Assembly (NCBI RefSeq): GCF_044647545.1
Contig: NZ_CP172818.1
From: Escherichia coli
GTDB taxonomy: Bacteria; Pseudomonadota; Gammaproteobacteria; Enterobacterales; Enterobacteriaceae
DNA length: 64,000 nucleotides
Strand: one strand, 5' to 3'
The notes under the pieces are model-generated. The model was not told the origin of the DNA. It did not search any database and saw only the letters and a program-made list of their open reading frames with translations. Shown piece by piece: positions 4,560 to 62,081 of the stretch. Made by a program: the position numbers and the translations under genes. The stretch's first letter is position 1. Each line of letters opens with the position of its first letter.

Positions 4560-5058
4560 TTACTGCCCAGAGTTTTGTTGGTATTCATCTACCATTTTTT
4601 TGACAAGGCAAAACATTACAGAAATCACAATGCTTAGAAAAAATCCCAGAATCAGGCAAATGGCAGCAGGATATTTACTTTTTATTTCCGGTGAGCTTAT
4701 GGTTACACAGTCATCACCGTTCGGATACAATGACCAGTTCCTGGTCAGGTATATCATTTTTGTATAAAGCTCACTGTTAATTGCTGAAGGTGTTTGTATC
4801 TCATCGAGAACTTGCCTGCCGTTATGGTATTCTGACGCATACCATTTGATAATAGACGCATGCACGCGAGATATTTCCGCTTCAGCAGTTGGTAAATCTC
4901 TCTTATCTCCTGACCATTCCAGCTTTATTTCTCGTATACAGAAACAACAGCACCATTGCCATACAGATAGCTATAATAAAAAGGATAATACGAATCTTTT
5001 TCTTCAGATAAAATAAAATCTCAATCAGATCGATATCCTGTTTGATTTGTTCACTCAT
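4560..5058 (-). pseudogene. ykgH: ykgH-like inner membrane protein, reading frame broken by a 1-bp shift near 4930-4945
   Basis: ATG at 5058 opens a 53-codon frame that stops at about 4900; C-terminal 101 aa are in another frame (track ORF 4560..4865); the two parts overlap around an A-run. Confidence 0.5.
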
Positions 5059-14716: not shown

Positions 14717-14973
14717 CTTGTTCCCCTCTGGTTAGACATGGACGAAAGCTACTCTTACATGTGCAGACTATAGAGAAATAAAACCTGATTGAGTGAAAGG
14801 GTATCGGGTCAAAGAAACAAATATTGCACTACCGCACACTGCGAAAAGATTGTTGAACATCATTCAACAAAAAGGCGAAATACGGCGAATTAAATTTAAG
14901 CGGGTTCTTTTATCAGATTATCGTTGCTATTCGCAATTCATCGAAAACAGCCACAAAAACCAGGGGAATGTGA

Positions 14974-15575
14974 ATGAGTATAAAAAATCTACCTGCCGAC
15001 TATTTATTGGCTGCACAACAGGGTGATATCGATAAAGAAAAACCTGCCTTGCGCTGGGTGTCGATATTAATACCTGCGATCGTCAGGGGAAAACGGCAAT
15101 TACGCTGGCAAGTTTATATCAGCAATATGCTTGCGTTCAGGCATTAATTGATGCCGGAGCGGATATTAATAAGCAAGATCATACTGTTTAAATCCTTTTT
15201 TAATTAGCTGTCTGAACGATGATTTAACGCTACTACGAATTATTTTACCGGCTAACCCGATCTTAATTGCGTAACCCGTTTTGGCGGTGTCGGCCTGACG
15301 CCTGCCTGTGAAAAAGGCCATTTAAGTATTGTAAAAGAGCTTTTGGCGCATACGGAAATTAACGTTAACCAGACCAACCATGTAGGCTGGACGCCGCTAC
15401 TGGAAGCGATTGTGCTTAATGATGGCGGTATTAAACAGCAGGCGATTGTCCAGTATTGCTGGAACATGGTGCCAGTCCGCATCTGACGGATAAATATGGC
15501 AAAACGCCGCTGGAACTGGCGCGGGAACGGGGCTTTGAAGAGATTGCGCAGTTACTGATTGCCGCAGGCGCATAA
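14974..15575 (+). pseudogene. yahD: Ankyrin-repeat protein gene with about four 1-bp deletions
   Basis: ATG at 14974 reads MSIKNLPADYLLAAQQGDIDK then stops; ankyrin-repeat peptide segments recur in shifted frames up to TAA at 15573-15575; span is 602 bp, not a multiple of 3. Confidence 0.65.
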
Positions 15576-15585
15576 CCCGGGAGGC

Positions 15586-16465
15586 TTGCTATCAACACAC
15601 CAGAAAGACGGTGTGTGTGGGCCGCAACTGCGGATGCGGGATTTTCTGGCGCAGCGGGGGCAAGGACAGGTTGAACAGGTCTTTGCCAGAGCGGTAAATA
15701 TCGCACTCCCGGCCGCCAGCAGTTGCTGACGCTGCTTTGTGAAGAGTACGACAATGCGCCAAACAGTTGTCGGTTGGCATCACTCACTTTGATGTCTTTC
15801 GGCATGGTGATAAGGTTCAGTTTGACGATCAAGGCATTACGGTTGGTCAACATCTTCATATAGAGATACGAGTCGTTGTCGGCGTTGGCTGTCCCCAACC
15901 TTGCAAATGACCGCTGTGAATTTTCACCTTATCGCCTGGCTACAGTGGCACGACATTATTCATCAGCACCTGGGGGAAAATGAAACCCTGTTTAATTATC
16001 GCGGCGATAATCCGTTTTATCAGGCGTTAGGTAAAGAATTACATATTAAACGACGGGCAGTTATTCAGGCCGTAAACGATAAACAAAATATCGCCTCAGC
16101 GGTCGCCAGTATGATGGGGTTAGGGATTGGCCTTACGCCATCAGCCGACGATTATTTAACAGGTCTGGCGCTTATTTTATTTATTCCCGGCATCCGGCGG
16201 AAAAATACAAAGAGGAATTTTATCTCGGTCTGCAACGCGGCAAAAATAATACCACATTATTAAGTGCCATAACGCTGGAAGCCGCATTACAACAACGCTG
16301 CCGGGAAAATATTCATCGTTTTATTCACAACATTATTTATGACATCCCTGGGAAAAACCCCGAACTCAGGCAATAGAAAAAATTAAACATATTGGCTCCA
16401 GTTCCGGCTGCGACATGCTGTATGGCATGGCCGATGGTTGTGCGCTGAGCCAAACCTACGGAGGG
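15586..16465 (+). pseudogene. yahE: yahE-like gene, frame fragmented; boundaries approximate
   Basis: Only a 120-aa fragment (track ORF 15901..16263) survives between yahD and yahF; position matches yahE. Confidence 0.35.
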
Positions 16466-16469
16466 AATT

Positions 16470-18009
16470 ATGTCAGTTAAAATAGTCATTAAACCGAATA
16501 CCTATTTTGATTCTGTCTCGCTGATGTCTATCTCCACGCGTGCAAATAAACTCGACGGCGTCGAGCAGGCATTTGTGGCGATGGCGACCGAAATGAATAA
16601 AGGCGTGCTGAAGAATTTAGGACTGCTGACGCCGGAGCTGGAGCAGGCGAAAAACGGCGACCTGATGATTGTCATCAATGGTAAATCGGGTGCGGACAAC
16701 GAGCAGTTGCTGGTGGAGATTGAAGAACTGTTCAACACCAAAGCGCAAAGCGGCTCGCACGAGGCGCGTTACGCCACTATTGGCAGCGCCAAAAAGCATA
16801 TCCCGGAAAGTAACCTGGCGGTGATTTCGGTCAACGGTCTGTTTGCCGCTCGCGAAGCGCGTCAGGCGCTGCAAAACGATCTCAACGTGATGCTGTTTTC
16901 CGATAACGTCTCAGTTGAAGATGAACTGGCGCTCAAGCAACTGGCCCACGAAAAAGGGCTGCTGATGATGGTTAGACTGTGGCACGGCGATTATCAACGG
17001 CGCGGCGCTCTGTTTTGGTAACGCCGTGCGTCGCGGCAACATCGGTATTGTTGGCGCATCCGGCACCGGCAGTCAGGAGTTGAGCGTCCGCATTACTTAA
17101 TTTGGCGGCGGCGTTTCGCAACTGATCGGCACCGGCGGGCCAGCCTGAGCGAGAAATTGGCGGCCTGATGATGCTCGACGCCATCGGGATGCTGGAAAAC
17201 GATCCGCAAACTGAAATCATTGCGCTTATCTCCAAACCGCCTGCGCCTGCGGTGGCCCGCAAAGTGCTGGAACGTGCGCGCGCCTGCCGCAAGCCGGTGG
17301 TCGTCTGCTTCCTCGATCGTGGCGAAACGCCAGTGGATGAGCAGGGGCTACAGTTTGCCCGCGGCACCAAGAGGCAGCGCTAAAAGCGGTGATGCTCTCC
17401 GGCGTGAAACAGGAAAATCTCGACCTGCATACGCTTAACCAGCCGTTGATTGCGGATGTGCGTGCGCGTCTGCAACCGCAGCAGAAATACATTCGTGGCC
17501 TGTTCTGCGGCGGCACGCTGTGCGACGAAACCATGTTCGCGGTGATGGAAAAACATGGCGATGTCTACAGCAACATTCAGCCCGATCCGGAATTCCGCCT
17601 GAAAGATATCAACCGCAGCATCAAACACACCTTCCTCGACTTTGGCGATGACGACTTCACCAACGGCAAGCCGCACCCGATGATTGACCCCACCAACCGC
17701 ATCAGTCGCTTGATCGAAGAGGCGCGCGATCCAGAAGTGGCGGTGATCATGGATTTTGTGCTCGGATTTGGATCGCATGAAGATCCGGTCGGCTCCACCA
17801 TCGAGACGATCAAAGAAGCGAAAGCGATCGCCGCTGCCGAAGGACGCGAGTTGATCATTCTCGCCTATGTGCTGGGTACCGATCTTGATACGCCATCGTT
17901 AGAACAACAAAGCCAGATGCTGCTTGATGCCGGAGTGATTCTGGCGAGCAGCAGCACCAATACCGGATTGCTGGCGCGTGAATTTATCTGCAAAGGGGAG
18001 GAAGCCTGA
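16470..18009 (+). pseudogene. yahF: Succinyl-CoA synthetase alpha-like (CoA-binding) protein gene, split into at least 3 frames
   Basis: Track ORFs 16470..17021, 17168..17383 and 17389..18009 lie in frames 0, 2 and 1 and read as consecutive parts of one protein. Confidence 0.65.
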
Positions 18010-19427
18010 TGAGCCAGTCACTGTTTAGCCAACCATTGAACGTTATTAACGTCGGCATCGCCATGTTTAGCGATGACCTGAAAAAGCAGCATGTAGAAGT
18101 GACTCAACTCGACGGGACGCCGCCGGGGCAGGGCAATATGCAGGTGGTGCAGGCGCTGGATAACATTGCCGATCTTGCCGCTGGCGGACAAAATCGCCGC
18201 CGCTAACCAGCAGGCGCTGGAGCGTATTATCCAGTCGCATCCGGTGCTGATTGGTTTTGATCAGGCGATTAACGTGGTGCCGGGCATGACGGCGAAAACC
18301 ATTCTTCACGCCGGGCCGCCGATCACCTGGGAAAAAATGTGCGGCGCGATGAAAGGCGCGGTCACCGGAGCGCTGGTGTTCGAAGGACTGGCGAAGATCT
18401 CGACGAGGCGGCTGAACTGGCGGCTTCCGGGGAGATCACCTTCTCGCCGTGTCACGAGCACGACTGTGGGATCGATGGCGGGTGTTACCTCGGCCTCGAT
18501 GTTTATGCACATCGTAAAAAACAAAACCTACGGCAACATCGCTTATACCAACATGAGCGAGCAGATGGCGAAGATTTTGCGTATGGGCGCTAACGACCAG
18601 AGCGTGATTGACCGCCTGAACTGGATGCGTGATGTGCAGGGACCAATACTGCGCGACGCGATGAAAATTATCGGCGAAATCGATCTGCGCTTAATGCTGG
18701 CGCAGGCGCTGCGGATAGGGCGATGAGCGCCATAACCGCAATAACGCCGGGACGACACTGCTGATTCAGGCGCTGACGCCGGGGATTATTCAGGCGGGTT
18801 ATTCCGTCGAGCAACAGCGCGAAGTGTTTGAGTTTGTCGCCAGCAGCGACTACTTCTCCGGCCCGACGTGGATGGCGATGTGTAAAGCGGCGATGGATGC
18901 GGCGCATGGCATCGAATACAGCACCGCGGTCACCACCCATGGCGCGTAACGGCGTCGAGTTCGGCATGCGGGTCAGCGGCCTGCGGGGTAATGGTTCAAC
19001 CGGCCCGGCGCAGCAGGTGATCGGCCCGATGTTTGCCGGTTATAAGCCGGAAGATTCGGGGCTGGATATCGGCGACAGCGCCATCACCGAAACCTACGGT
19101 ATTGGCGGATTTGCTATGGCGACCGCGCCCGCTATCGTCGCGCTGGTGGGCGGCACGGTGGAAGAAGCTATTGATTTCTCCCGTCAGATGCGCGAAATCA
19201 CCCTCGGTGAAAACCCCAACGTCACCATTCCGCTGCTCGGTTTTATGGGCGTGCCGTCGGCAATCGACATCACCCGCGTGGGTAGCAGCGGCATTCTGCC
19301 GGTGATCAACACCGCCATCGCCCATAAAGATGCGGGCGTCGGCATGATTGGCGCGGGCATTGTGCATCCACCTTTTGCCTGCTTCGAGAAAGCCATTCTT
19401 GGCTGGTGCGAACGTTACGGCGTCTGA
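18009..19427 (+). pseudogene. yahG: yahG-like (DUF1116) gene with an internal +1 frame segment
   Basis: Track ORFs 18009..18206 (frame 0), 18166..18726 (frame 1) and 18828..19427 (frame 0); total span 1419 bp, a multiple of 3. Confidence 0.6.
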
Positions 19428-19440
19428 CCTACATGTTCAT

Positions 19441-19799
19441 GCCGGATGCGGCGTGAACGCCTTATCCGGCCTACGAATGGCGCAAGAATCTGTAGGCCTG
19501 ATAAGCGTAGCGCATCAGGCATTTGTCACCATTGCCGGATGCGGCGTGAACGCCTTATCCGGCCTACGAATGGCGCAAGAATCTGTAGGCCTGATAAGCG
19601 TAGCGCATCAGGCATTTGCCACCACTGCCGGATGCGGCGTGGACGCCTTATCCGGCCTACGAGTGGCGCGAGAATCTGTAGGCCTGATAAGCGTAGCGCA
19701 TCAGGCATTTGTCACCATTGCCGGATGCGGCGTGAACGCCTTATCCGGCCTACGAGTGGCGCGAGAATTGTAGGCCTGATAAGCGTAGCGCATCAGGCA
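19441..19799. repeat. BIME/REP array, about 3.9 tandem units of 93 bp, each with two REP palindromes
   Basis: Units begin at 19441, 19534, 19627 and 19720 with near-identical sequence GCCGGATGCGGCGTGAACGCCTTATCCGGCCTAC...GTAGGCCTGATAAGCGTAGCGCATCAGGC. Confidence 0.85.
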
Positions 19800-19848
19800 G
19801 TCTGGCGTTGGTCATAACCCCATCACCCTCTGTAGCGGACATAACAAC

Positions 19849-20803
19849 ATGAAAGAGCTTGTGGTCGTTGCCAATGGTGGCAACAGCATTATAGAAAGAT
19901 AACGCCAGCCAGTCGATTGAGCATCAGGCGGAGGCGGTGAAAGCCGTGGCCGATACGGTGCTGGAAATGCTGGCTTCCGATTACGACGTGCTGACCCACG
20001 GTAACGGGCCGCAGGTCGGCTAAGATACGCCGTGCGGAGATTGCCCACGAGCGCGAAGGGCTGCCCTTAACGCCGCTGGCGAACTGTGTGGCAGATACGC
20101 AGGGCGGCATCGGCTATCTGATCCAACAGGCGCTGAATAACCGGCTGGCGCGTCACGGCGAGAAAAAAGCCGTCACCGTGGTAACTCAGGTGGAAGTGGA
20201 TAAAAACGATCCAGGTTTTGCCCATCCACCAAGCCCATTGGTGCATTCTTCAGTGAAAGCCAGCGTGACAAACTACAAAAGGCAAACCCTGACTGGTGTT
20301 TTGTTGAAGATGCCGGACGGGGCTATCGCCGCGTGGTCGCCTCGCCGGAACCGAAACGTATTGTCGGCACCACCATCGCGCGCTGGAGAGATCCAACAAG
20401 GTTTTGTCGTAATTGGCGCGGGCGGCGGTGGAATTCCGGTAGTGCGTACTGAAGCGGGGGATTACCAGAGCGTGGACGCGGTTATTGACAAAGATCTCTC
20501 TACCGCGCTGCTTGTCGCCGTGAAATTCACGCCGACATTCTGGTGATCACCACCGGCGTCGAAAAAGTCTGTATCCACTTTGGTAAACCGCAGCAGCAGG
20601 CGCTGGATCGGGTGGATATTGCCACCATGACTCGCTATATGCAGGAAGGGCATTTTCCGCCCGGCGGCGTGTTGCCAAAAATCATCGCCAGCCTGACGTT
20701 CCTGGAGCAGGGCGGCAAAGAAGTGATTATCACCACGCCGGAATGCCTGCCTGCGGCGCTGCGCGGTGAAACGGGCACCCATATTCTAAACGTAAGGACG
20801 TAG
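19849..20803 (+). pseudogene. yahI: Carbamate kinase-like gene, frameshifted
   Basis: ATG at 19849 reads MKELVVVANGGNSIIER then stops; downstream fragments (track ORFs 20088..20546 and 20543..20803) carry carbamate kinase-like sequence in other frames. Confidence 0.6.
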
Positions 20804-20804
20804 G

Positions 20805-22214
20805 ATGAAAGAAAGCAATAGCCGCCGTGAATTTCTGAGCCAGAGCGGTAAGATGGTCACCGCCGCCGCGCTGTTCGGTACCTCTTTGCCGCTCGCCCAT
20901 GCGGCGGTAGCTGGCACCCTAAACTGCGAAGCGAACAACACCATGAAAATCACTGACCCGCATTACTATCTCGATAACATGCTGCTGGAAACCGGTTTTG
21001 ACTACGAAAACGGTGTGGCGGTGCAGACCCGCACGGCGCGCCAGACCGTGGAGATTCAGGACGGCAAAATTGTCGCCCTGCGCGAGAACAAGCAGCATCC
21101 GGACGCCACGCTGCCGCACTATGACGCTGGCGGTAAGTTGATGCTACCCACCACTCGCGACATGCATATTCATCTCGACAAAACCTTCTACGGCGGGCCG
21201 TGGCGCTCGCTCAATAGTCCGGCAGGCACCACTATCCAGGACATGATCAAGCTTGAGCAGAAAATGCTGCCGGATTACAACCGTATACGCAGGAGCGGGC
21301 GGAAAAACTGATCGATCTATTGCAGTCGAAAGGCACCACCATTGCCCGCAGCCACTGCAATATCGAACCGGTTTGCCGGCCTAAAAAATCTGCAAAATTT
21401 GCAGGCGGTGCTGGCGCGGCGTCGGGCCAGCTCGAGTGTGAAATCGTCGCCTTCCCGCAGCACGGTTTGCTGCTGTCGAGATCGGAACCCTTAATGCGCG
21501 AAGCGATGCAGGCGGGTGCGCATTACGTCGGCGGGCTGGACCCGACCAGTGTCGATGGCGCGATGGAAAGATCCCTCGACACCATGTTTCAGATTGCGCT
21601 GGACTACGACAAAGGTGTCGATATTCACCTGCACGAAACCACTCCATCAGGGCGTGGCAGCCATCAATTATATGGTTGAAACGGTAGAGAAAACGCCGCA
21701 ACTGAAAGGTAAGCTGACCATCAGCCACGCCTTTGCGCTGGCTACGCTCAACGAACAACAGGTCGATGCGCTCGGCGAATCGGATGGCGGCGCAGCAAAT
21801 TTCTATCGCCCTGACGGTGCCGATTGGCACGCTGCATATGCCGCTCAAACAGTTGCACGACAAAGGCGTAAAAGTGATCACTGGCACTGACAGCGTTATC
21901 GACCACTGGTCGCCTTATAGTATCGGCGACATGCTGGAAAAAGCCAATCTCTACGCGCAGCTCTATATTCGTCCTAACGAACAGAACCTCTCCCGTTCGC
22001 TGTTTCTAGCCACTGGCGATATATTGCCGCAATGAAAAAGGCGAGCGTGTATGGCCAAAAGCGCAGGATGATGCCAGCTTTGTGCTGGTGGACGCCTCCT
22101 GTTCCGCCGAGGCGGTGGCGCGTATCTCGCCGAGAACCGCAACGTTCCATAAAGGGCAACTGGTGTGGGGGAGTGTGGCAGGTTGATGCGCATTTGAAAC
22201 GCCTGCAACGGTGA
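20805..22214 (+). pseudogene. yahJ: Amidohydrolase/deaminase-family gene, split into at least 4 frames
   Basis: Track ORFs 20805..21311, 21320..21679, 21516..21890, 21733..22035 and 22032..22214 read as consecutive pieces; metal-binding HxH motif in the first piece. Confidence 0.55.
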
Positions 22215-22563
22215 ATTGTAAAGAGATTTAAGCCCCAGGGAGTGGGGCAATCTGAATATGAGTGTGTCGGCAGAAATGGACATTATCTTTGAGGAATATG
22301 CCCTTATTGACGTTGTGTAGATAACTATTTGTCTACGTGAAAAGATCATCAGTTTTGCCGATTTTAGTCTTTTACAGATAGCAAATATCACACTTACAGG
22401 CGCTCGCCTTATGGGGAACGTTGCTGCTCTGTTTCATTCAGGCTCGCGGCATGTTGGGGCTGGATCGGGTGGTTTAAATATTGGCTATATTCAATGGACG
22501 CGTTTTGCCGCGATGACATATCAGGCGTTGCCAAATACACATAGCTAATCAGGAGTAAACACA

Positions 22564-23613: not shown

Positions 23614-23851
23614 AAAAATTAATAAATACCCTGTGGTTTAACATATTAACTTCGTTCTCCACTTAACTTTTTAGTTAAGGAGAGCGAAATAATATCAAAG
23701 TAGCAGTAAAACCTATAACGTAAATTTAAATTGTTAAATTAACGCCCTCCAGTACACAATACTTCACACGTTAGTTATGAGCGATTTCTGATAGTGCCTG
23801 GTTTAATCAGAGCTTTATTATCTGCGACGTTTATTTTTATTTAGAGATCGC

Positions 23852-24662
23852 GATGATATCATTAAAAGCTCCGCACAATAATTTGATGCCATATACGCAA
23901 CAAAGCATACTTAATACGGTTAAAAACAATCAGTTACCAGAGGATATCAAAAGCGCCTGGTTTCCTGTGTCGATATATTCAAGGTTTTGATTAAACAATA
24001 TTATGATTATCCTTATGATTGTCGTGATGATTTAGTCGATGACGACAAACTCATTCATCTCATGGCTGCCGTACGAGACTGTGAGTGGTCAGACGATAAC
24101 GCACTCACCATAAATGTGCAGTTTAATGATTTCCCTGGATTTTATGACTGGATGGATTACCCTGATCACCCGGTTAGGGTTACTTCATACTTGAAAATCA
24201 AAAAGGGACAGTTTGGGTATATGACCAGGATGATGCGTTTCTTGATATTAAAGCAAACGTGCAGGCTGGACGCTTTACCGGGCTTAAGAAATTAGTGCAG
24301 TTTATCGATTCAGTGCGAACAGATTGCAAATGTATTCTTCTTGAATACCATATGCCTTTGCTGAGAATTTTCCCTAAAGGGAAAGAGTGTATGCATGTGG
24401 AAAAATGGCTTCGCGAAATGTCGTCTATTCCGGAGACAGACGCGCCCATTAAGCAGGCGCTTGCGCATGGATTATTATTACACTTAAAAAATATCTACCC
24501 TGTTTTCCTGAATCACTGGTGATGTTATTGCTCTCTGTTCTGGACGTAAAAACATACAGAGATGATGCGCGATTAAATGAATGGATATCTAATAGAGTGC
24601 AGGAATTAGGTGACAGATATTATCCTGTAAATAAGCACGTTAAAATCCGCTACACTCTTTAG
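23852..24662 (+). pseudogene. yahL: yahL-like gene, frameshifted; boundaries approximate
   Basis: ATG at 23852 stops after about 45 codons; track ORFs 23987..24295 and 24259..24522 continue in other frames. Confidence 0.4.
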
Positions 24663-25176
24663 TTCAGAAAGGGTTCCACCTGCAAGTTGTTATTCCACCT
24701 GAGAGTGAATCGCAATGCAGGTAATCATTTCATCTGTATATCTGTATGCCAACTGGCATTCCATCTCTTTTTTCGCCGATATTTTGTGTGATCGGCGACA
24801 CTTCGCTTAAAAAAGCACCAGTAGTGGTTTCGCAGCCATGCGGTGTATAAAAAATGATCTCATGCAGATGTTTTGTGAATGTGTTGGTTGACATTCATAT
24901 GAAAAAAATCATAATTCCATCATGTTTGTGTGGGGTCTTTTCTGTATCTTACGCATCGCACTCAAGCCTGACAGAAAATATGCTGTAAGGCTCATATAAA
25001 AAACGCCATTAGCTCATCAGGAAGAGCAGACGACAACCAGGATTGTTGTATGGTACGGGGTTCGAGGCCTCGATGGCGGTCCAACTTTCAAAACTCTTCT
25101 GAATCAGATCCCCTTATTATCATCCCTGCAAAGTGGAACATTGCCATTGTTTGGCTATTCAGGATGGGGCAGACCA

Positions 25177-25356
25177 ATGAAAAAAGCCCACACAGGGGAG
25201 AGTGGGCTGAAATGGGAAGCTAAAGACTCAAGTAAACTTATCGGAAATAAGGACCACGCATCAGGGGCTATCATCGCCGATGGCCGTGATTCGGCAAATC
25301 AGGTTGATTACGTAGAGAGTAAATTATCTGCTCACCGCTGCGTCACCCCTTCGTAA
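25177..25356 (+). CDS. Small hydrophilic ORF (59 aa from ATG) in the yahM position; identity uncertain
   Basis: Part of track ORF 25141..25356; promoter-like TTGACA-N17-ATAATT at 24888-24916 lies upstream. Confidence 0.2.
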   Translation: MKKAHTGESGLKWEAKDSSKLIGNKDHASGAIIADGRDSANQVDYVESKLSAHRCVTPS

Positions 25357-28347: not shown

Positions 28348-29304
28348 ATGTCTCTACACTCTCCAGGTAAAGCGTTTCGCGCTGCACTGACTAAAGAAAA
28401 TCCATTGCAGATTGTTGGCACCATCAACGCTAATCATGCGCTGTTGGCGCAGCGTGCCGGATATCAGGCAATTTATCTTTCTGGCGGTGGCGTGGCGGCA
28501 GGTTCGCTGGGGCTGCCCGATCTCGGTATTTCTACCCTTGATGATGTGCTGACCGACATTCGCCGTATCACCGACGTTTGTTCGCTGCCGCTGCTGGTGG
28601 ATGCGGATATCGGTTTTGGTTCTTCGGCCTTTAACGTGGCGCGCACCGTGAAATCGATGATTAAAGCCGGTGCGGCAGGATTGCATATTGAAGATCAGGT
28701 TGGTGCGAAACGCTGCGGTCATCGTCCGAATAAAGCGATCGTCTCGAAAGAAGAGATGGTGGATCGGATCCGCGCGGCGGTGGATGCGAAAACCGATCCT
28801 GATTTTGTGATCATGGCGCGCACCGATGCTCTGGCGGTAGAGGGGCTGGATGCGGCGATCGAGCGTGCGCAGGCCTATGTTGAAGCGGGTGCCGAGATGT
28901 TGTTCCCGGAGGCGATTACCGAACTCGCCATGTACCGCCAGTTTGCCGATGCGGTGCAGGTGCCGATCCTCGCCAATATTACCGAATTTGGCGCAACACC
29001 GCTGTTTACTACCGATGAATTACGCAGTGCCCATGTTGCAATGGCGCTGTACCCGCTTTCAGCGTTTCGCGCCATGAACCGCGCCGCCGAACATGTCTAC
29101 AACGTCCTGCGTCAGGAAGGCACGCAGAAAAGCGTCATCGACACCATGCAAACCCGCAACGAGCTGTACGAAAGCATCAATTACTACCAGTACGAAGAGA
29201 AGCTCGACGACCTGTTTGCCCGTAGCCAGGCGAACCCCCCCCCCCCCCCCCACAACGAAAAATATCTCGACCCTACAAAAAAAAAAATGACGAGGACAAT
29301 ATGA
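28348..29304 (+). CDS. prpB: 2-methylisocitrate lyase; the C-terminus runs through a C17 tract, giving an aberrant tail
   Basis: ORF track 28348..29304, 318 aa; sequence is lyase-like up to FARSQ, then [24 protein letters not shown] encoded by the homopolymer region. Confidence 0.7.
29235..29251. repeat. Homopolymer tract C17, followed by A11 at 29277-29287
   Basis: Counted directly in the sequence. Confidence 0.9.
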
Positions 29305-30468
29305 GCGACACAACGATCCTGCAAAACAGTACCCATGTCATTAAACCGAAAAAATCGGTAGCACTTTCTGGCGTTCCGGCGGGCAATACGGCGCTCTGCA
29401 CCGTGGGTAAAAGTGGCAATGACTTGCATTACCGTGGTTACGATATTCTTGATCTGGCGGAACATTGCGAATTTGAAGAAGTGGCGCATCTGCTGATCCA
29501 CGGCAAACTGCCGACCCGTGACGAACTCGCCGCCTACAAAACGAAACTGAAAGCCCTGCGCGGTTTACCGGCTAACGTGCGTACCGTGCTGGAAGCCTTA
29601 CCGGCGGCGTCGCACCCGATGGATGTTATGCGCACCGGCGTTTCCGCGCTCGGCTGCACGCTGCCAGAAAAAGAGGGGCATACCGTCTCTGGCGCGCGGG
29701 ATATTGCCGACAAACTGCTGGCGTCACTTAGCTCGATTCTTCTCTACTGGTATCACTACAGCCACAACGGCGAACGCATTCAGCCGGAAACCGATGACGA
29801 CTCCATCGGCGGTCACTTCCTGCATCTGCTGCATGGCGAAAAGCCGTCGCAAAGCTGGGAAAAGGCGATGGAGATCCGCTGGTGCTGTACGCCGAACACG
29901 AGTTTAACGCCTCCACCTTTACCAGCCGGGTGATCCGGCGGGCACCGGCTCTGATATGTATTCCGCGATTATTGGCGCGATTGGTGCACTGCGCGGCTGA
30001 AGCACGGCGGGGCGAATGAAGTGTCGCTGGAGATCCAGCAACGCGACGAAACGCCGGACGAAGCCGAAGCCGATATCCGCAAGCGGGTGGAAAACAAAGA
30101 AGTGGTCATTGGTTTTGGTCATCCGGTTTATACCATCGCCGACCCGCGTCATCAGGTGATCAAACGTGTGGCGAAGCAGCTCTCGCAGAAGGCGGCTCGC
30201 TGAAGATGTACAACATCGCCGATCGCCTGGAAACGGTGATGTGGGAGAGCAAAAGATGTTCCCCAATCTCGACTGGTTCTCCGCTGTTTCCTACAACATC
30301 AGGGGCTTTCCCACCGAGACGTTCACCCCACTGTTTGTTATCGCCCGCGTCACCGGCTGGGCGGCGCACATTATCGAACAACGTCAGGACAACAAAATTA
30401 TCCGTCCTTCCGCCAATTATGTTGGACCGGAAGCACGCCCGTTTGTCGCGCTGGATAAGCGCCAGTAA
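29301..30468 (+). pseudogene. prpC: 2-methylcitrate synthase gene, split into at least 3 frames
   Basis: Track ORFs 29301..29933, 30021..30203 and 30166..30468 read as consecutive citrate synthase-family segments; span 1168 bp. Confidence 0.7.
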
Positions 30469-30501
30469 ACCTCTACGAATAACAATAAGGAAACGTACCC
30501 A

Positions 30502-31952
30502 ATGTCAGCTCAAATCAACAACATCCGCCCGGAATTTGATCGTGAAATCGTTGATATCGTCGATTACGTCATGAACTACGAAATCAGCTCCAAAGCAGCC
30601 TACGACACCGCCCATTACTGCCTGCTCGACACGCTCGGCTGCGGTCTTGAAGCTCTCGAATACCCGGCCTGTAAAAAACTGCTGGGGCCAATTGTCCCCG
30701 GCACCGTCGTCCCCAACGGCGCGCGCGTCCCCGGAACTCAGTTCCAGCTCGACCCCGTCCAGGCGGCATTTAACATCGGCGCGATGATCCGCTGGCTCGA
30801 TTTCAACGATACCTGGCTGGCGGCGGAGTGGGGCCATCCTTCCGACAACCTCGGCGGCATTCTGGTACGGCGGACTGGCTTTCGCGCAACGCGGTCGCCA
30901 GCGGCAAAGCGCCGTTGACCATGAAACAGGTGCTGACCGCAATGATCAAAGCCCATGAAATTCAGGGCTGCATCGCGCTGGAAAACTCCTTTAACCGCGT
31001 CGGCCTCGACCACGTTCTGTTAGTGAAAGTGGCTTCCACCGCCGTGGTCGCCGAAATGCTCGGCCTGACCCGCGAGGAAATTCTCAACGCCGTTTCGCTG
31101 GCGTGGGTGGACGGTCAGCCGCTGCGCACCTATCGCCATGCGCCGTAACACCGGCACGCGTAAATCCTGGGCGGCGGGCGATGCCACTTCCCGCGCGGTA
31201 CGTCTGGCACTGACGGCGAAAACGGGCGAAATGGGTTACCCGTCAGCCCTGACTGCGCCGGTGTGGGGCTTCTACGACGTCTCCTTTAAAGGTGAGTCGT
31301 TCCGCTTCCAGCGCCCGTACGGTTCCTACGTTATGGAAAATGTGCTGTTCAAAATCTCCTTCCCGGCGGAGTTCCACTCCCAGACGGCAGTTGAAGCAGC
31401 GATGACGCTCTATGAACAGATGCAGGCAGCAGGCAAAACGGCGGCGGATATCGAAAAAGTGACCATTCGCACCCACGAAGCCTGTATTCGCATCATCGAC
31501 AAAAAAGGACCGCTCAATAACCCGGCAGACCGCGATCACTGCATTCAGTACATGGTGGCGATCCCGCTGCTGTTCGGGCGCTTAACGGCGGCAGATTACG
31601 AGGACAACGTTGCGCAAGATAAACGCATCGACGCCCTGCGCGAGAAGATCAATTGCTTTGAAGATCCGGCATTTACCGCTGACTACCACGACCCGGAAAA
31701 ACGCGCCATCGCCAATGCCATTACCCTTGAGTTCACCGACGGACGCGATTTGAAGAAGTGGTGGTGGAGTACCCCATTGGTCATGCTCGCCGCCGTCAGG
31801 ATGGTATTCCGAAACTGGTCGATAAATTCAAAATCAATCTCGCGCGCCAGTTCCCGACTCGCCAACAGCAGCGCATTCTGGAGGTTTCTCTCGACAGAGC
31901 TCGCCTGGAACAGATGCCGGTCAATGAGTATCTCGACCTGTACGTCATTTAA
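30502..31952 (+). pseudogene. prpD: 2-methylcitrate dehydratase gene, split into at least 3 frames
   Basis: Track ORFs 30502..30918, 30828..31148, 31138..31956 and 31758..31952; span 1451 bp. Confidence 0.7.
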
Positions 31953-31990
31953 GTAAACGGCGGTAAGGCGTAAGTCAACAGGAGACCATT

Positions 31991-33871
31991 ATGTTTTAGC
32001 GAATTTTATCAGCGTTCGATTAACGAACCGGAGCAGTTCTGGGCCGAGCAGGCCGTGTATTGACTGGCAGACGCCCTTTACGCAAACGCTCGATCACAGC
32101 AATCCGCCGTTTGCCCGTTGGTTTTGTGAAGGCTGAACCAACTTGTGCACAACGCTATCGACCGCTGGCTGGAGAAACAGCCAGAGGCGCTGGCGCTGAT
32201 TGCCGTCTCTTCGGAAACAGAAGAAGAGCGCACCTTTACCTTTCGTCAGCTGCATGACGAAGTGAACGCGGTGGCCTCAATGTTGCGTTCATTGGGCGTG
32301 CAGCGTGGCGATCGGGTGCTGGTGTATATGCCGATGATTGCCGAAGCGCATATTACTCTGCTGGCCTGCGCGCGCATTGGCGCTATTCACTCGGTGGTGT
32401 TTGGGGGATTTGCCTCGCACAGCGTGGCGGCGCGAATTGATGATGCTAAACCGGTGCTGATTGTCTCGGCTGATGCCGGAGCGCGCGGTGGCAAAATCAT
32501 TCCCTATAAAAAATTGCTCGACGATGCGATAAGTCAGGCGCAGCACCAGCCACGCCATGTTTTGCTGGTGGATCGCGGGCTGGCGAAAATGGCGCGCGTC
32601 AGCGGGCGGGATGTCGATTTCGCGTCGTTGCGCCATCAACACATCGGCGCGCGGGTACCGGTGGCGTGGCTGGAATCCAACGAAACCTCCTGCATTCTCT
32701 ACACCTCCGGCACGACCGGCAAACCTAAAGGCGTGCAGCGTGACGTCGGCGGATATGCGGTGGCGCTGGCGACCTCGATGGACACCATTTTTGGCGGCAA
32801 AGCGGGCGGTGTGTTCCTTTGTGCTTCGGATATCGGCTGGGTGGTGGGGCGTTCTATATCGTCTACGCGCCGCTGCTGGCGGGGATGGCGACTATCGTTT
32901 ACGAAGGATTACCGACCTGGCCGGACTGCGGCGTGTGGTGGAAAATCGTCGAGAAATATCAGGTTAGCCGGATGTTCTCAGCGCCGACCGCCATTCGCGT
33001 GCTGAAAAAATTCCCTACCGCTGAAATTCGCAAACACGATCTCTCGTCGCTGGAAGTGCTCTATCTGGCTGGAGAACCGCTGGACGAGCCGACCGCCAGT
33101 TGGGTGAGCAATACGCTGGATGTGCCGGTGATCGACAACTACTGGCAGACCGAATCCGGCTGGCCGATTATGGCGATTGCTCGCGGTCTGGACGACAGGC
33201 CGACGCGTCTGGGAAGCCCCGGTGTGCCGATGTATGGCTATAACGTGCAGTTGCTTAATGAAGTCACCGGCGAACCGTGTGGCGTCAACGAGAAAGGGAT
33301 GCTGGTGGTGGAAGGGCCGCTGCCGCCGGGGTGTATTCAGACCATCTGGGGCGACGACGGCCGCTTTGTGAAGACTTACTGGTCGCTGTTTTCCCGCCCG
33401 GTGTACGCCACCTTTGACTGGGGCATCCGTGACGCTGACGGTTATCACTTTATTCTCGGGCGCACTGACGATGTGATTAACGTTGCCGGGCATCGGCTGG
33501 GGACGCGCGAGATTGAAGAGAGTATCTCCAGCCATCCGGGCGTTGCCGAAGTGGCGGTGGTTGGGGTGAAAGATGCGCTGAAAGGGCAGGTGGCGGTGGC
33601 GTTTGTCATTCCGAAAGAGAGCGACAGTCTGGAAGATCGTGATGTGGCGCACTCGCAAGAGAAGGCGATTATGGCGCTGGTGGACAGCCAGATTGGCAAC
33701 TTTGGCCGCCCGGCGCACGTCTGGTTTGTCTCGCAATTGCCAAAAACGCGATCCGGAAAAATGCTGCGCCGCACGATCCAGGCGATTTGCGAAGGACGCG
33801 ATCCTGGAGATCTGACGACCATTGATGATCCTGCGTCGTTGGATCAGATCCGCCAGGCGATGGAAGAGTAG
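31991..33871 (+). pseudogene. prpE: Propionyl-CoA synthetase gene, frameshifted
   Basis: ATG at 31991 followed by TTT TAG; track ORFs 32145..33005 and 32819..33871 carry acyl-CoA synthetase sequence in different frames. Confidence 0.7.
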
Positions 33872-33876
33872 GTTAT

Positions 33877-34050
33877 TGTCGGATGCGTCGCGCGGCGCAT
33901 CCGGCACTGGTGCCGATGCCTGATGCGACGCTGACGCGTCTTATCATGCCTACGGACCTGAACCGTAGGTCGGATAAGGCGCTCGCGCCGCATCCGACAC
34001 CATGCTCAGATGCCTGATGCGACGCTGACGCGTCTTATCAGGCCTACCCA
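33877..34050. repeat. BIME cluster of about 4 REP palindromes between prpE and codB
   Basis: Repeated GCCTGATGCGACGCTGACGCGTCTTATCAGGCCTAC-type palindromes read directly. Confidence 0.7.
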
Positions 34051-34117
34051 CTGTTTTTACACCGATAATTTTTCCCCCACCTTTTTGCACTCATTCATAT
34101 AAAAAATATATTTCCCC

Positions 34118-34135
34118 ACGAAAACGATTGCTTTT
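34118..34135. promoter_or_regulatory. PUR-box-like sequence ACGAAAACGATTGCTTTT upstream of codB
   Basis: About 12 of 16 matches to the ACGCAAACGTTTGCGT PurR consensus; codBA is purine-regulated in E. coli. Confidence 0.3.
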
Positions 34136-34199
34136 TATCTTCAGATGAATAGAATGCGGCGGATTTTTTGGGTTTCAAACAGCAAAAAGGGGGAATTTC

Positions 34200-35455
34200 G
34201 TGTCGCAAGATAACAACTTTAGCCAGGGGCCAGTCCCGCAGTCGGCGCGGAAAGGGGTATTGGCATTGACGTTCGTCATGCTGGGATTAACCTTCTTTTC
34301 CGCCAGTATGTGGACCGGCGGCACTCTGGAACCGGTCTTAGCTATCATCAATTCTTTCCTCGCAGTTCTCATCGGTAATCTTCTCCTCGGTATTTACACT
34401 TGATTTCTCGGTTACATTGGCGCAAACCGGCCTGACCACTCATCTTCTTGCTCGCTTCTGGTTTGGTGTTAAAGGCTCATGGCTGCCTTCACTGCTACTG
34501 GGCGGAACTCAGGTTGGCTGGTTTGGCGTCGGTGTGGCGATGTTTGCCATTTCGGTGGGTAAGGCAACCGGGCTGGATATTAATTTGCTGATTGCCGTTT
34601 CCGGTTTACTGATGACCGTCACCGTCTTTTTTGGCATTTGGCGCTGACGGTTCTTTCGGTGATTGCGGTTCCGGCTATCGCCTGCCTGGGCGGTTATTCC
34701 GTGTGGCTGGCTGTTAACGGCATGGGCGGCCTGGACGCATTAAAAGCGGTCGTTCCCGCACAACCGTTAATTTCAATCTCGCGCTGGCGCTGGTTGTGGT
34801 CATTTTCTGGTGGGTACGCTCGCCGCTGGCGCCTTTTGTCCGGTTTGGTCGCAATGCCAAACTGGCGGTGCTGGTGGCGATGGTGGCCTTTTTCCTCGGC
34901 AACTGGTTGATGTTTATTTTCGGTGCAGCGGGCGCTGCGGCACTGCGCATGGCGGATATCTCTGATGTGATGATTGCTCAGGGCCTGCTGCTGCCTGCGA
35001 TTGTGGTGCTGGGGCTGAATATCTGGACCACCAACGATAACGCACTCTATGCGTCGGGTTTAGGTTTCGCCAACATTACCGGGATGTCGAGCAAAACCCT
35101 TTCGGTAATCAACGGTATTATCGGTACGGTCTGCGCATTATGGCTGTATAACAATTTTGTCGGCTGGTTGACCTTCCTTTCGGCAGCTATTCCTCCAGTG
35201 GGTGGCGTGATCATCGCCGACTATCTGATGAACCGTCGCCGCTATGAGCACTTTGCGACCACGCGTATGATGAGTGTCAATTGGGTGGCGATTCTGGCGG
35301 TCGCCTTGGGGATTGCTGCAGGCCACTGGTTACCGGGAATTGTTCCGGTCAACGCGGTATTAGGTGGCGCGCTGAGCTATCTGATCCTTAACCCGATTTT
35401 GAATCGTAAAACGACAGCAGCAATGACGCATGTGGAGGCTAACAGTGTCGAATAA
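34200..35455 (+). pseudogene. codB: Cytosine permease gene, split into 4 frame segments
   Basis: Track ORFs 34200..34403, 34417..34647, 34638..34910 and 34796..35455 read as consecutive permease segments; span 1256 bp. Confidence 0.7.
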
Positions 35456-41199: not shown

Positions 41200-42498
<1,299 letters not shown>

Positions 42499-54155: not shown

Positions 54156-54329
54156 TGATGACTGCCGAGAACGTGCATTTTGTATGCCCATCCCAGCACG
54201 ACTGCCGGATGTAAACGCCTTGTTCGGCCTACATTTTCTTCGCCTGTAGGCAGTCATTAAATGGTTCTGATTACGCGGCTGGCAATGTATCAGCCGCGAT
54301 TCACCTGCACTCGCAACGAGGTTCATCTT

Positions 54330-56182: not shown

Positions 56183-56223
56183 ACATTGATAAATCGTGTG
56201 CAGCACCCACACCAGCCAGCAAG

Positions 56224-56329
56224 AGCGGATAAGGCGTCCGCCCACCGGCAGCGTGCATCCTGATGACGCTTTGCATCTATCATCCTAGTTTCCAGAAATA
56301 GGATAAGGCGTTCACGCCGCATCCGGCAG
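56224..56329. repeat. REP elements between yaiL and frmB
   Basis: GCGGATAAGGCGTCCGCC... and GGATAAGGCGTTCACGCCGCATCCGGCAG palindromes. Confidence 0.5.
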
Positions 56330-58871: not shown

Positions 58872-59645
58872 TCAGAATTTCCAGGTCAGATGGGCTGCAA
58901 GTTGCAGACCGTTATAATCATCGGTTGGGGTGTCGTACCACACTTTACCTGCCGTCAGCCCGAGATTAAGTTGCTCAGTCAGCGGTTGAATACGTTGCAG
59001 ACTGACGCTCTTCATGCTGCCGTAGCGTGTTTCTGGCGTCCAGTCATAGGTGTAAGCGCCTGTTCCGCGGCTTAGCCATAGTTGCGTATAACCAGTGCCG
59101 CGCGGGTCATTCAGACGCACGGAAATCATATTGCTGTAACTACCACCTGCATCGCTGGAGTCATAATGGGTATAGCGGTAGCTGGAGATCACCGGGCCAG
59201 TATAGAGGGATACGCCGCCTTGCCAGGCATCGACTTCGACATCATCGTAATATTTAGTGTAGCGATAACCGGTCGTGAAAAGCGTTTTTGGCAACAGGGC
59301 CAGGTTAATATCCTGACGAAAATCCTGGCGGGCAAAGACCGGCGTATTATCCGCAAAGGCAATACCCGTTCGGGTTGTCAGCCAGTTATTCCATTTATAC
59401 CAGACCGCACCCTGACCGCGAGTGGCATTGAAATGTTCAGTTTCATAATCACGACGCCCCTGGGAAAGATTAAAAAGCAGCGTTGCGTTTTCAACTTTCG
59501 CCACCAGTTCAGCATACGCTAAATTACGATTGCCATGATCGCCAGAATAATCGGTAAAATCGTAGCCCGCGGTAATGGAAGTTAACCCGGCATAAGCGGG
59601 CAATGTGCTAAAAATGGCCGCCGCTAATAACGTCCGTTTTATCAT
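58872..59645 (-). CDS. yaiO: Outer membrane beta-barrel protein
   Basis: ORF track 58872..59645, 257 aa, signal peptide, terminal F. Confidence 0.85.
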   Translation of the reverse strand: MIKRTLLAAAIFSTLPAYAGLTSITAGYDFTDYSGDHGNRNLAYAELVAKVENATLLFNLSQGRRDYETEHFNATRGQGAVWYKWNNWLTTRTGIAFADNTPVFARQDFRQDINLALLPKTLFTTGYRYTKYYDDVEVDAWQGGVSLYTGPVISSYRYTHYDSSDAGGSYSNMISVRLNDPRGTGYTQLWLSRGTGAYTYDWTPETRYGSMKSVSLQRIQPLTEQLNLGLTAGKVWYDTPTDDYNGLQLAAHLTWKF

Positions 59646-59646
59646 T

Positions 59647-60200
59647 TTAATCTCCTGTACGGATAAGTTCTTGTCGGAGTGAATAAGTTCCGGTAGGTAA
59701 ATTACGTTCTACAATCACGCGCGGGCCAAGTTGCGTGTTCGGGGAAATAATTCGCCCAGGCAAAATAATAACTTGTACGCCAAGGCGTGAACGCTGTCCG
59801 ATATAACAACCTAATTTATCGCATCCGGTAGCGATAATTCCCTCTGGAGTTCGAACAGACACGGGCTGTTCATCCAGACGATGATTACTGGTACGTACTT
59901 GTGCGCCCAAATATGCCTGGTTTGCGACTACCGAGTCGGCAATAAAACATTGCGGACCAATCGTTGCTTCCGCTTCAATAACCGCATTTTTAATTTCGGT
60001 GGCGAAACCAATTTTTACGCCATTGCTGATTATTGTGCCAGGACGAATAAACGAAATTACCTATCAGGCAGTTTGCGCCAATCACTACCGGACCCTGAAT
60101 AACGGCACCGTGACAAATACGGGTATTCGCGCCGATAACAACTTCACCTGCAGTTTCATCAATAATTACCTGGTCTGCAATCTGAATATTTTTCTCTTTA
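59647..60200 (-). pseudogene. yaiX: Hexapeptide-repeat acetyltransferase gene with a single frameshift near 60050-60060; start approximate
   Basis: Track ORFs 59990..60355 and 59647..59910; re-reading one frame over from about 60055 restores a continuous hexapeptide protein down to 59647. Confidence 0.5.
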
Positions 60201-60203
60201 ACA

Positions 60204-61400
60204 TTAAGCTTCAGAAAGTTTTTCAGTTCCTGTGACAGAAGGTTGGGAATAAGCGGTTGACGCTTCCACCAGTGCGGAATAGCGGGTGGGTTTGTCGCGC
60301 TGAGGTTCGCGTCCAGTAAAAAAGGCAATAAGTCCATAAATAATCCAGATGGCATAAGCTAATAATACATACACAACGGAAAGCGGCGCTAAAGGCACCA
60401 ACAACCAGCAACGATGAAACCAGGCGCTAAAAGCACCAATAACACAAACTACGCCGACCCAGATAAGCGGAAACATTGCCAACACCACACCATGCGGCCC
60501 GGTGGTGATGAATTCATTAAACCAGGTAGTGAGATAAATCCCAACGCCATAAAGCACAACCAACAGCATAGGAAATATACTGAAGATACCGAAGCGGCTA
60601 AATAAAAGTCTTTTATGCAGGCGCATACAGACCGCGTAGCCCACAATCCAACGCCGCCAGCGACGCCATTCCTCACGCGGGCTGTTGCATTCCTGTGGGT
60701 ATACGATGCAGCGATTCGCCTGCCGAATACGATAGCCGTTTGCCACCAATGTCCAGGTGAGATCAAGGTCTTCGACTTTAGTACGATCAGAGAAACCGAA
60801 CTTACGCAATACATCAGTACGGAACATCCCGCAGGCACCGCTGATAATAAACGGTGCGCCGCCCAGGAGCTGCTGTAGCGTGCGCTTCATAACAATCATC
60901 GGCAACTTTACGGTCGCGCGGATGTGCGGTAACAGCCCCGCGCCTTTCAACGCAGTAGAGGGAATGCCGCCTACGGCATCAGCACCGCGCTCAATTTCTG
61001 CCAGCATATAGCCCATTCCGTCTTGATCGGGCGGAACATAGGTGTCGGCATCACTTAAAAAAACCTGGTCGCAGGTGGCGTAATTGAGGCCATTCATCAG
61101 CGCACCACCTTTACCGGTATTTTTTTGCGTGACGGCAACAAAGCGGTCGCCCCATTTGCGTTTGACTTCCGCCATGACCGCTTCGGTATTGTCCGTGGAG
61201 CCGTCGTTAACGCAAATTACCCGGCAAAAATAAGGGTTACGCAGCAGATTATCCAGTGACTGCGCCAGACACGGGCCTTCGTTATAAGCAGGTATAATGG
61301 CGTCAATACAGCCTTTTTTTTGGCTGGGCTTACGCCTTAACGTACTCAGGAACCATAGCAATATTGCTACGGCCATACAGATAAATATCCAGGTTTTCAT
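60204..61400 (-). CDS. yaiP: Family 2 glycosyltransferase with C-terminal membrane region
   Basis: ORF track 60204..61400, 398 aa. Confidence 0.85.
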   Translation of the reverse strand: MKTWIFICMAVAILLWFLSTLRRKPSQKKGCIDAIIPAYNEGPCLAQSLDNLLRNPYFCRVICVNDGSTDNTEAVMAEVKRKWGDRFVAVTQKNTGKGGALMNGLNYATCDQVFLSDADTYVPPDQDGMGYMLAEIERGADAVGGIPSTALKGAGLLPHIRATVKLPMIVMKRTLQQLLGGAPFIISGACGMFRTDVLRKFGFSDRTKVEDLDLTWTLVANGYRIRQANRCIVYPQECNSPREEWRRWRRWIVGYAVCMRLHKRLLFSRFGIFSIFPMLLVVLYGVGIYLTTWFNEFITTGPHGVVLAMFPLIWVGVVCVIGAFSAWFHRCWLLVPLAPLSVVYVLLAYAIWIIYGLIAFFTGREPQRDKPTRYSALVEASTAYSQPSVTGTEKLSEA

Positions 61401-61409
61401 GCAATTTGC

Positions 61410-62081
61410 TCAAAGAATCATTTTATGAATTACAAAGCCTTCACCCAGATCGCTATTGACCTGTTGCCCGCGAAATTGTGCAACTGCACGCAGGCGATCA
61501 TGACGCATATAATCGCGTCGTTCCTGGCTTTTATGTTTTTTTAATGCAGCAAGTTTGACTGTGAAATATTCTTCTTTAACGGATTCAAAAACCTGAGGCA
61601 TAAATGAAAGCCAGGTACTCGGGGTTTCGTAGCCGAGAATTTGTGGAATAGTTCGGCAGGCAACCATTGAGGCTTGATAGACTGCAAGATGATCCTGATG
61701 GCGGTCAGCATCATGCATGGTGTATACACGAATGATTTCTACATCAGACGGAATTTGATTTTTAATGATGTCTTCCAGGGCGGAAATCATATCATTGAGC
61801 TGTAAATGAGCGCGGGTGTCAGCAAAATTAAGATGAATAGTTTGGTGGCACCCTAATATCTTTAGGGCGTTGCGCGATTCTTCATGGCGATCGATTATTC
61901 CATCTGTGCCAGAGTTGCCGGTAGTCATCACCACGGCTGCGATATAAATTCCTTTTTGCGCAAGACGAGCAAGCGATGCGCCACAGCCTAATTCTATATC
62001 GTCAGGATGTGCGCCAATAGCAAGGATACCCTTTCTTTTATTTGCCGAAGAAAGGAGGGCTGAATCTAAAACCTTATCCAC
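61410..62081 (-). CDS. yaiS: PIG-L family (LmbE-like) deacetylase
   Basis: ORF track 61410..62081, 223 aa; AHPDDIE motif near N-terminus; exact start uncertain. Confidence 0.7.
   Translation of the reverse strand: MDKVLDSALLSSANKRKGILAIGAHPDDIELGCGASLARLAQKGIYIAAVVMTTGNSGTDGIIDRHEESRNALKILGCHQTIHLNFADTRAHLQLNDMISALEDIIKNQIPSDVEIIRVYTMHDADRHQDHLAVYQASMVACRTIPQILGYETPSTWLSFMPQVFESVKEEYFTVKLAALKKHKSQERRDYMRHDRLRAVAQFRGQQVNSDLGEGFVIHKMIL

Follow-up and report, generated by a model that had tools for sequence, protein, structure and literature searches.

[quoted passage not shown] An abstract that EcoGene 3.0 cites (PMC3531124) reports that repair of the K-12 gene, yaiX′, results in clumping that depends on yaiP. 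In the genomes of the K-12 strains W3110 and J53 yaiX is split by a 1,331-bp copy of IS2, as a first-pass annotation had stated for K-12, and the element is accompanied by a 5-bp duplication of its ATTAC target (1,336 bp together). In strain DETEC-P61 the gene is interrupted by IS1, and in the natural relatives L73 and D9 it is intact and free of IS2.

Here we describe the copy of yaiX that is found in a 64-kb stretch of E. coli DNA (referred to hereafter as the window, meaning the whole of the stretch that was analysed). This copy resembles yaiX′ of K-12 in that the gene and its neighbours (frmR, yaiO, yaiX, yaiP and yaiS) are the same, the points of disruption lie within 1–4 nt of each other, and in both cases the β-helix is cut at about residue 57–60 of the 193-aa form of the protein. 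However, the window has no IS2, and ATTAC occurs in it without duplication; the gene is broken there by the loss of two bases, and the flanks of the lesion are of the FDAARGOS_497 haplotype, which differs from K-12 by about 1.4% on the yaiO side. From the pattern of lesions across the record we infer that the yaiX frameshift is probably a scar of consensus building or assembly, as opposed to a mutation that the organism carries.

Results

The neighbourhood of the lesion reads frmR–yaiO–yaiX–yaiP–yaiS, with every gene on the minus strand (Table 1). The intact (or repaired) 193-aa YaiX matches the Pfam Hexapep model PF00132 with an E-value of 1.6e-18 (66 bits, where the curated cut-off is 27) and is, by this family model, a hexapeptide-repeat (left-handed β-helix) acyltransferase. 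The closest matches of the intact protein are to the C-terminal acetyltransferase domain of the archaeal-type bifunctional GlmU. In particular, the GlmU models TIGR03992 (8.7e-38 and 130 bits, below the curated cut-off of 292) and NF041173 (121 bits, cut-off 600) are matched over their C-terminal positions 233–393 only, and the structures 2GGO and 5Z09 in the PDB match at about 7e-23. We rejected GlmU itself as an identity for YaiX, since the scores fall under the cut-offs and the acetyltransferase domain alone is matched; as judged by these models, YaiX is a stand-alone left-handed β-helix acetyltransferase. The ATG of yaiO lies 1 nt past the yaiX stop codon (GGAGATTAAAATG), and this spacing suggests that the two genes are translationally coupled.

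The first-pass annotation had placed the end of the gene at 60200, which is too short: yaiX runs to 60226 in the 193-aa model or to 60355 in the 236-aa form. The RefSeq 193-aa model uses a CTG at 60226 as the start codon of the intact gene. The 236-aa form begins with the ATG at 60355, overlaps yaiP by 152 nt and, according to PMC13058169, has no Shine–Dalgarno sequence. Between 60328 and 60085 yaiX has no ATG, GTG or TTG with which to start. As a separate observation, yaiS in the window is an ORF of 223 aa, whereas in K-12 it stops at codon 186 (window 61524–61526) and the annotated YaiS is of 185 aa; a single SNP, at window position 61526, makes the K-12 stop codon. In FDAARGOS_497, L73 and D9 the long form of yaiS is labelled by PGAP as an incomplete PIG-L pseudogene.

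Table 1 Coordinates of the features described in the window
Feature	Position	Strand	Evidence or remark
ykgH-like ORF (166 aa in FDAARGOS_497), frameshift	4933..4934	.	TGTT>GT (−2), at a 168-bp extra segment of K-12
Haplotype switch, yahC–yahD spacer	near 14.93 kb	.	three-way alignment
Noisy segment 1, yahD to yahJ	14933..22220	.	K-12 backbone with dense private 1–2-bp indels and substitutions
Noisy segment 2, yahL and yahM	23655..25263	.	K-12 backbone with private indels
Noisy segment 3, prpB 3′ end to codB	28977..34946	.	K-12 backbone with private indels
prpB–prpC spacer (fifth case)	29234..29290	.	K-12-only insertion of ~395 bp mostly removed
Haplotype switch inside lacY, K-12-type to FDAARGOS_497-type	41302..41500	.	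three-way alignment
Private 5-bp deletion (GCGGC) in REP	54205..54233	.	slidable breakpoint of a 398-bp K-12-only tandem REP cluster
Garbled BIME between yaiL and fghA	56204..56300	.	K-12-only BIME of about 100 bp; extra bases lost
yaiO, outer-membrane β-barrel	58872..59645	-	PF19413; downstream neighbour of yaiX
yaiX, hexapeptide (left-handed β-helix) acetyltransferase, out of frame	59647..60226	-	RefSeq 193-aa model coordinates
C-terminal remnant of yaiX	59647..60052	-	intact residues 58–193, in another frame
N-terminal remnant ORF of yaiX	59990..60226	-	57 native residues and a 21-residue out-of-frame tail; stop at 59990–59992
yaiX lesion, net −2	60053..60054	.	intact ...AAACGCATAATTACC..., window ...AAACGAAATTACC...; at the 1,336-bp IS2 and duplication of K-12
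ATTAC, target duplicated by the K-12 IS2, single copy in the window	60056..60060	.	junction alignment
yaiP, family-2 glycosyltransferase	60204..61400	-	Pfam; upstream neighbour of yaiX; intact, 100% identical to FDAARGOS_497
yaiS, PIG-L family deacetylase, 223-aa form	61410..62081	-	Pfam

When the window was aligned with intact alleles of yaiX, it differed from them only at 60053/60054. Across positions 59400–60500 the sole difference from FDAARGOS_497 is that the latter reads CGCATAATTAC where the window reads CG--AAATTAC (CGAAATTAC), and the next difference between the two lies 3.8 kb away, placing the lesion in a stretch that is locally clean. Put another way, the intact allele at the lesion is GCATAATTACC and the window allele at 60053–60060 is GAAATTACC; GCATAA has become GAAA, so that the missing bases can be described as a C and a T or, equally, as a replacement of CAT by A. 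In FDAARGOS_497 yaiX is annotated as an intact gene of 582 nt that encodes WP_072146072.1 (193 aa), and restoring the C and the T to the window yields exactly this protein, with 100% identity to intact YaiX (the 236-aa form of which is that of PMC13058169). The first-pass annotation had proposed that the gene reads continuously if one base is restored near 60055. This proved incorrect, for two bases are missing and the insertion of one leaves 6 stop codons in place; it is the removal of one base that reopens the frame. As written, the window copy contains no contiguous ORF that spans the whole β-helix: the reading frame is lost after residue 57, and the original frame contains 6 stops beyond that point. 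The ORF that begins with the ATG at 60355 encodes 121 aa, and the sole ORF with a canonical start in the C-terminal remnant is 59647–59910 (87 aa, TTG). At the level of the sequence, then, the window copy is what would be called a frameshift pseudogene, in that it carries a frame-disrupting lesion and its orthologues are intact.

We used megablast to compare positions 59400–60500 with 5,426 complete RefSeq genomes of E. coli, a set to which the record behind the window does not itself belong (nor is that record among the GTDB representatives). The region is present in 4,921 of these genomes and uninterrupted in 4,459; the uninterrupted matches that we sampled (36/36) span 1,103 nt, compared with 1,101 nt in the window. 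An 80-mer containing the lesion had no match at 99% identity or more in any of the 4,861 matching complete RefSeq records, the best matches being of 97.6% identity and spanning 82 nt of the subject against the 80 nt of the query. Consistent with this, a 41-mer containing the lesion was absent from the GTDB species representatives and the JGI metagenomes, and the frameshifted YaiX product, in each of three start variants, was absent from a collection of 15 billion proteins.

One reading of the lesion is that it represents a genuine and recent loss of function (CAT>A or two 1-nt deletions) in a strain resembling FDAARGOS_497, with YaiX truncated after residue 57 and the yaiS–yaiP–yaiX–yaiO surface-polysaccharide (clumping) operon inactivated by a route other than IS2. 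The bases are as described and the surrounding 3.8 kb is free of error relative to FDAARGOS_497; moreover, yaiX is non-essential, is already dead in K-12 and has received an IS1 insertion in another strain, and numerous partial yaiX products are present in NCBI. If the lesion is real, YaiX would be inactivated, with its β-helix interrupted after 57 of the 193 residues and most of the helix lost, and translation of yaiO would probably be uncoupled from that of yaiX, as the 1-nt spacing of stop and start suggests. However, the allele is shared by none of about 4,900 genomes, and a compound replacement of this sort, or a pair of 1-nt deletions two bases apart, is rare in nature but recurs in the unreliable parts of the record. 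Together with the distribution of the other private lesions (see below), these findings make a genuine mutation unlikely.

The position of the lesion points to K-12. The K-12 junction reads ...GCATAATTAC, followed by IS2 (1,331 bp) and then by ATTACCTATC..., and the bases missing from the window lie 1–4 nt to the left of ATTAC, the target of this IS2. We estimate the chance that the yaiX lesion would fall no more than 5 nt from the IS2 junction at about 3e-4. Yet the window copy is not of the IS2-interrupted K-12 type, for there is no copy of IS2 and ATTAC occurs once, and the nearest SNPs on either side that discriminate K-12 from FDAARGOS_497 (59995, 60004 and 60110) all carry the FDAARGOS allele. 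Furthermore, the window junction is not derivable from K-12 by a single contiguous deletion; deletions of 1,337 bp and of 1 nt would both be needed. The first-pass annotation had stated that the whole 64-kb window is without a transposase, and this we confirmed: the window is colinear with annotated stretches of three references that contain no IS elements, with 85 nt in all left unaligned, of which at most 55 nt are contiguous. Its proposal that yaiX carries a point frameshift in place of an IS element stands in so far as the gene is broken without an IS; there is no support for an independent mutation in a real strain.

IS3-family elements such as IS2 transpose by a copy-out/paste-in mechanism and do not excise, and host-mediated excision between the duplicated targets either restores the sequence or leaves remnants of the target or the element. 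A lesion that abuts the ATTAC at which IS2 inserted in K-12 could nonetheless be viewed as the footprint of a real insertion of IS2 (or of another IS) and its imprecise excision, at a target hot spot that is common to K-12. Several features of the window run counter to this explanation in addition to the established inability of IS3-family elements to excise. ATTAC is present once and undamaged, the bases that were lost lie outside it, the window contains no IS remnant, and the same −2 signature is found at a 168-bp K-12-only segment that is not an IS, with related scars at REP and BIME arrays. We regard an excision footprint as highly improbable.

A three-way alignment of the window with K-12 J53 and FDAARGOS_497 revealed that the window is a mosaic. 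The blocks from 1 to 14.9 kb and from 41.4 to 64 kb are of the FDAARGOS_497 type, and that from 15.0 to 41.4 kb has a K-12 backbone (the two switches between haplotypes are given in Table 1). The FDAARGOS-type parts (37.4 kb) carry the FDAARGOS allele at every discriminating site, including 532 of 532 discriminating SNPs between 41.5 and 64 kb, and they contain no private SNPs. Within the K-12 tract, stretches that are 100.0% identical to K-12 (22.25–23.5, 25.5–28.75 and 35.0–41.5 kb) alternate with noisy segments. The clean K-type stretches match many natural isolates of phylogroup A as well, at 100% identity, and the window matches K-12 at 3 of the 3 sites at which K-12 differs from L73 or D9; that K-12 itself is the source of the tract rests mainly on these three sites and on the coincidence of the yaiX lesion with IS2.

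In the noisy segments each of at least 12 genes (yahD, yahE, fdrA, yahG, yahI, yahJ, yahL, yahM, prpC, prpD, prpE and codB) contains several small private indels and premature stop codons, and yaiX is therefore not the sole broken gene in the window; the ykgH-like ORF is frameshifted as well as the 12. The changes in the noisy segments are common to no complete E. coli genome, the best identities being 98.5%, 98.0% and 97.6%. Two of the noisy segments together contain 45 indel events and 122 substitutions (23:36 in one, 22:86 in the other). Most of the indel events (34/45) are deletions, of 1 bp in 25 cases, 2 bp in 7 and 3 bp in 2, and 14 of the 45 have a substitution no more than 3 nt away, compared with an expectation of 3.7. 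Private deletions fall within homopolymers of at least 3 bases in 31 of 82 cases, against 12.8 expected. The truncated products of fdrA, yahJ, prpC, prpD, codB and yahG are each found on one NCBI contig of 4,499,902 bp. This replicon is smaller than that of K-12 and far smaller than the genomes of strains like FDAARGOS_497 (5.0–5.3 Mb), and its size is that expected of a K-12 scaffold from which strain-specific insertions have been deleted.

Several candidate sources of the noisy segments and the K-type tract were considered and set aside. Natural, old pseudogenes do not account for the noisy segments: the ratios of indels to substitutions are too high, the neighbouring sequence is 100% K-12 and the changes are unshared. 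Nor do errors at nanopore methylation motifs, since private events show no enrichment at GATC (Dam) or CCWGG (Dcm). Cross-mapping of reads from a yahI paralogue on an IncF plasmid was rejected because only 2 of the 36 private alleles of the window yahI match; conjugative IncF plasmids of E. coli do carry a carbamate-kinase homologue of yahI, with 85.8% nucleotide identity to that gene (19850–20835). The F′ lac-pro plasmids of K-12 carry the region but span far beyond the 26-kb K-type tract, leaving its ends unexplained. Finally, a Shigella source, which the genome size and the pseudogenes had suggested, was rejected: the sequence is 100% identical to E. coli haplotypes, its lac operon is intact and it lacks IS elements.

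The deletion bias of the many indels, and their excess in homopolymers, would also fit a low-quality long-read assembly in which the yaiX lesion is a generic, random error of the consensus with no involvement of K-12. The errors, however, are not uniformly distributed, and 37 kb of the window is base-perfect except at the sites of K-12-only insertions. The GCATAA of the reference leaves no homopolymer to contract at yaiX, Dam and Dcm motifs are not enriched, and the placement of the lesion at the IS2 junction would be a rare accident. We consider a random error extremely improbable.

What decides among these readings is where the private lesions of the clean sequence lie. The 37.4 kb of clean FDAARGOS-type sequence contains four private lesions only (4933/34, ~54210, 56204–56300 and 60053/54), and each coincides with one of the K-12-only insertions of at least 100 bp in those parts (4/4), with none elsewhere in them. 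Small indels that distinguish K-12 from FDAARGOS_497 (1–3 bp) have been converted cleanly. The lesion in the ykgH-like ORF takes the same form as that in yaiX, a −2 change in which the first and third bases of a 4-mer are lost. In the BIME between yaiL and fghA, ~50 K-12-only bases that are absent from FDAARGOS_497 have been kept in degraded form (56213–56262), amid FDAARGOS-type sequence. The spacer between prpB and prpC provides a fifth case; here 24 K-12-only bases remain and 6 shared bases are gone. By our estimate, four lesions placed at random in 37.4 kb would have a chance of ~1e-8 of all lying no more than 25 nt from four specified sites. The absence of private SNPs from 37 kb that nonetheless holds four private lesions of the indel type would be unexpected of a natural lineage, and it is at K-12-only insertions that all four of these lie despite flanks that are not those of K-12; both points argue against a genuine mutation. 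Because every private lesion of the clean parts lies at a K-12-only insertion, we favour a scar over a mutation.

Discussion

Our analyses suggest that the frameshift in yaiX marks the place at which the IS2 of K-12 was removed from the sequence during consensus building or assembly. The privacy of the allele, its position at the IS2 junction, the non-K-12 flanks and the dense private indels in other genes all point to such a scar, and the lesion lies at the breakpoint of a reference-specific insertion that is missing from the flanking haplotype. The record would have arisen if sequence derived from K-12, whether as a reference that served as the template or in the form of K-12 reads, had been merged with data from a strain like FDAARGOS_497. 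Where conversion to the haplotype of the sample succeeded, the outcome would be base-perfect FDAARGOS-type sequence; regions without support would have been kept as untouched K-12, and poorly supported regions would remain as half-converted K-12, noisy with small indels. Sizeable K-12-only insertions would have been excised imprecisely, and in yaiX the removal of IS2 and the 5-bp duplication (1,336 bp) would have taken two further bases, the C and the T in GCATA, from immediately beyond ATTAC. The process behind the scar may have been template polishing or the formation of a consensus from mixed strains. The window has in common with consensus artefacts of these reference-templated or mixed-strain kinds that its lesions lie only at K-12-only insertions, that K-12-only bases are partly kept, that untouched K-12 alternates with perfectly converted stretches and that the replicon is smaller than the reference; "reference-templated or mixed-strain consensus artefact" is the label that the record would seem to merit.

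Some features of the locus sit less easily with a scar. The window junction is more than one deletion away from that of K-12, and the sequence immediately around the lesion is clean. We have found no explanation for the patchiness of coverage or conversion. In addition, yaiX is dispensable and has been disrupted in nature by other means (IS2 in K-12, IS1 in DETEC-P61), making a real loss plausible a priori. A variant of that idea is that the lesion is a real and independent knockout of yaiX in a lineage of clinical type, at exactly the nucleotides that IS2 hit in K-12, and that the AT-rich sequence GCATAATTAC is a hot spot for mutation or insertion. Recurrent selection against the YaiX-dependent clumping polysaccharide would then be suggested; we think this quite doubtful, more so than a genuine mutation in general.

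The first-pass annotation was right that the reading frame of yaiX changes near 60053/60054, but the independent point mutation in a real strain that it implied is not supported. Were the lesion to be taken as an allele, it would amount to no more than a trivial private pseudogene allele, in a known gene that is already prone to becoming a pseudogene. At face value, it would be a second, independent route to the loss of yaiX and could enter analyses of convergent gene loss in that guise. The evidence points instead to a record that is chimeric, templated in part on K-12 and rich in false pseudogenes, and the frameshifts, the absence of IS elements and the small size of the record should be given no biological reading before the reads have been checked. 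More generally, a private indel that lies exactly at the site of an insertion specific to a reference genome may serve as a warning sign of an artefact.
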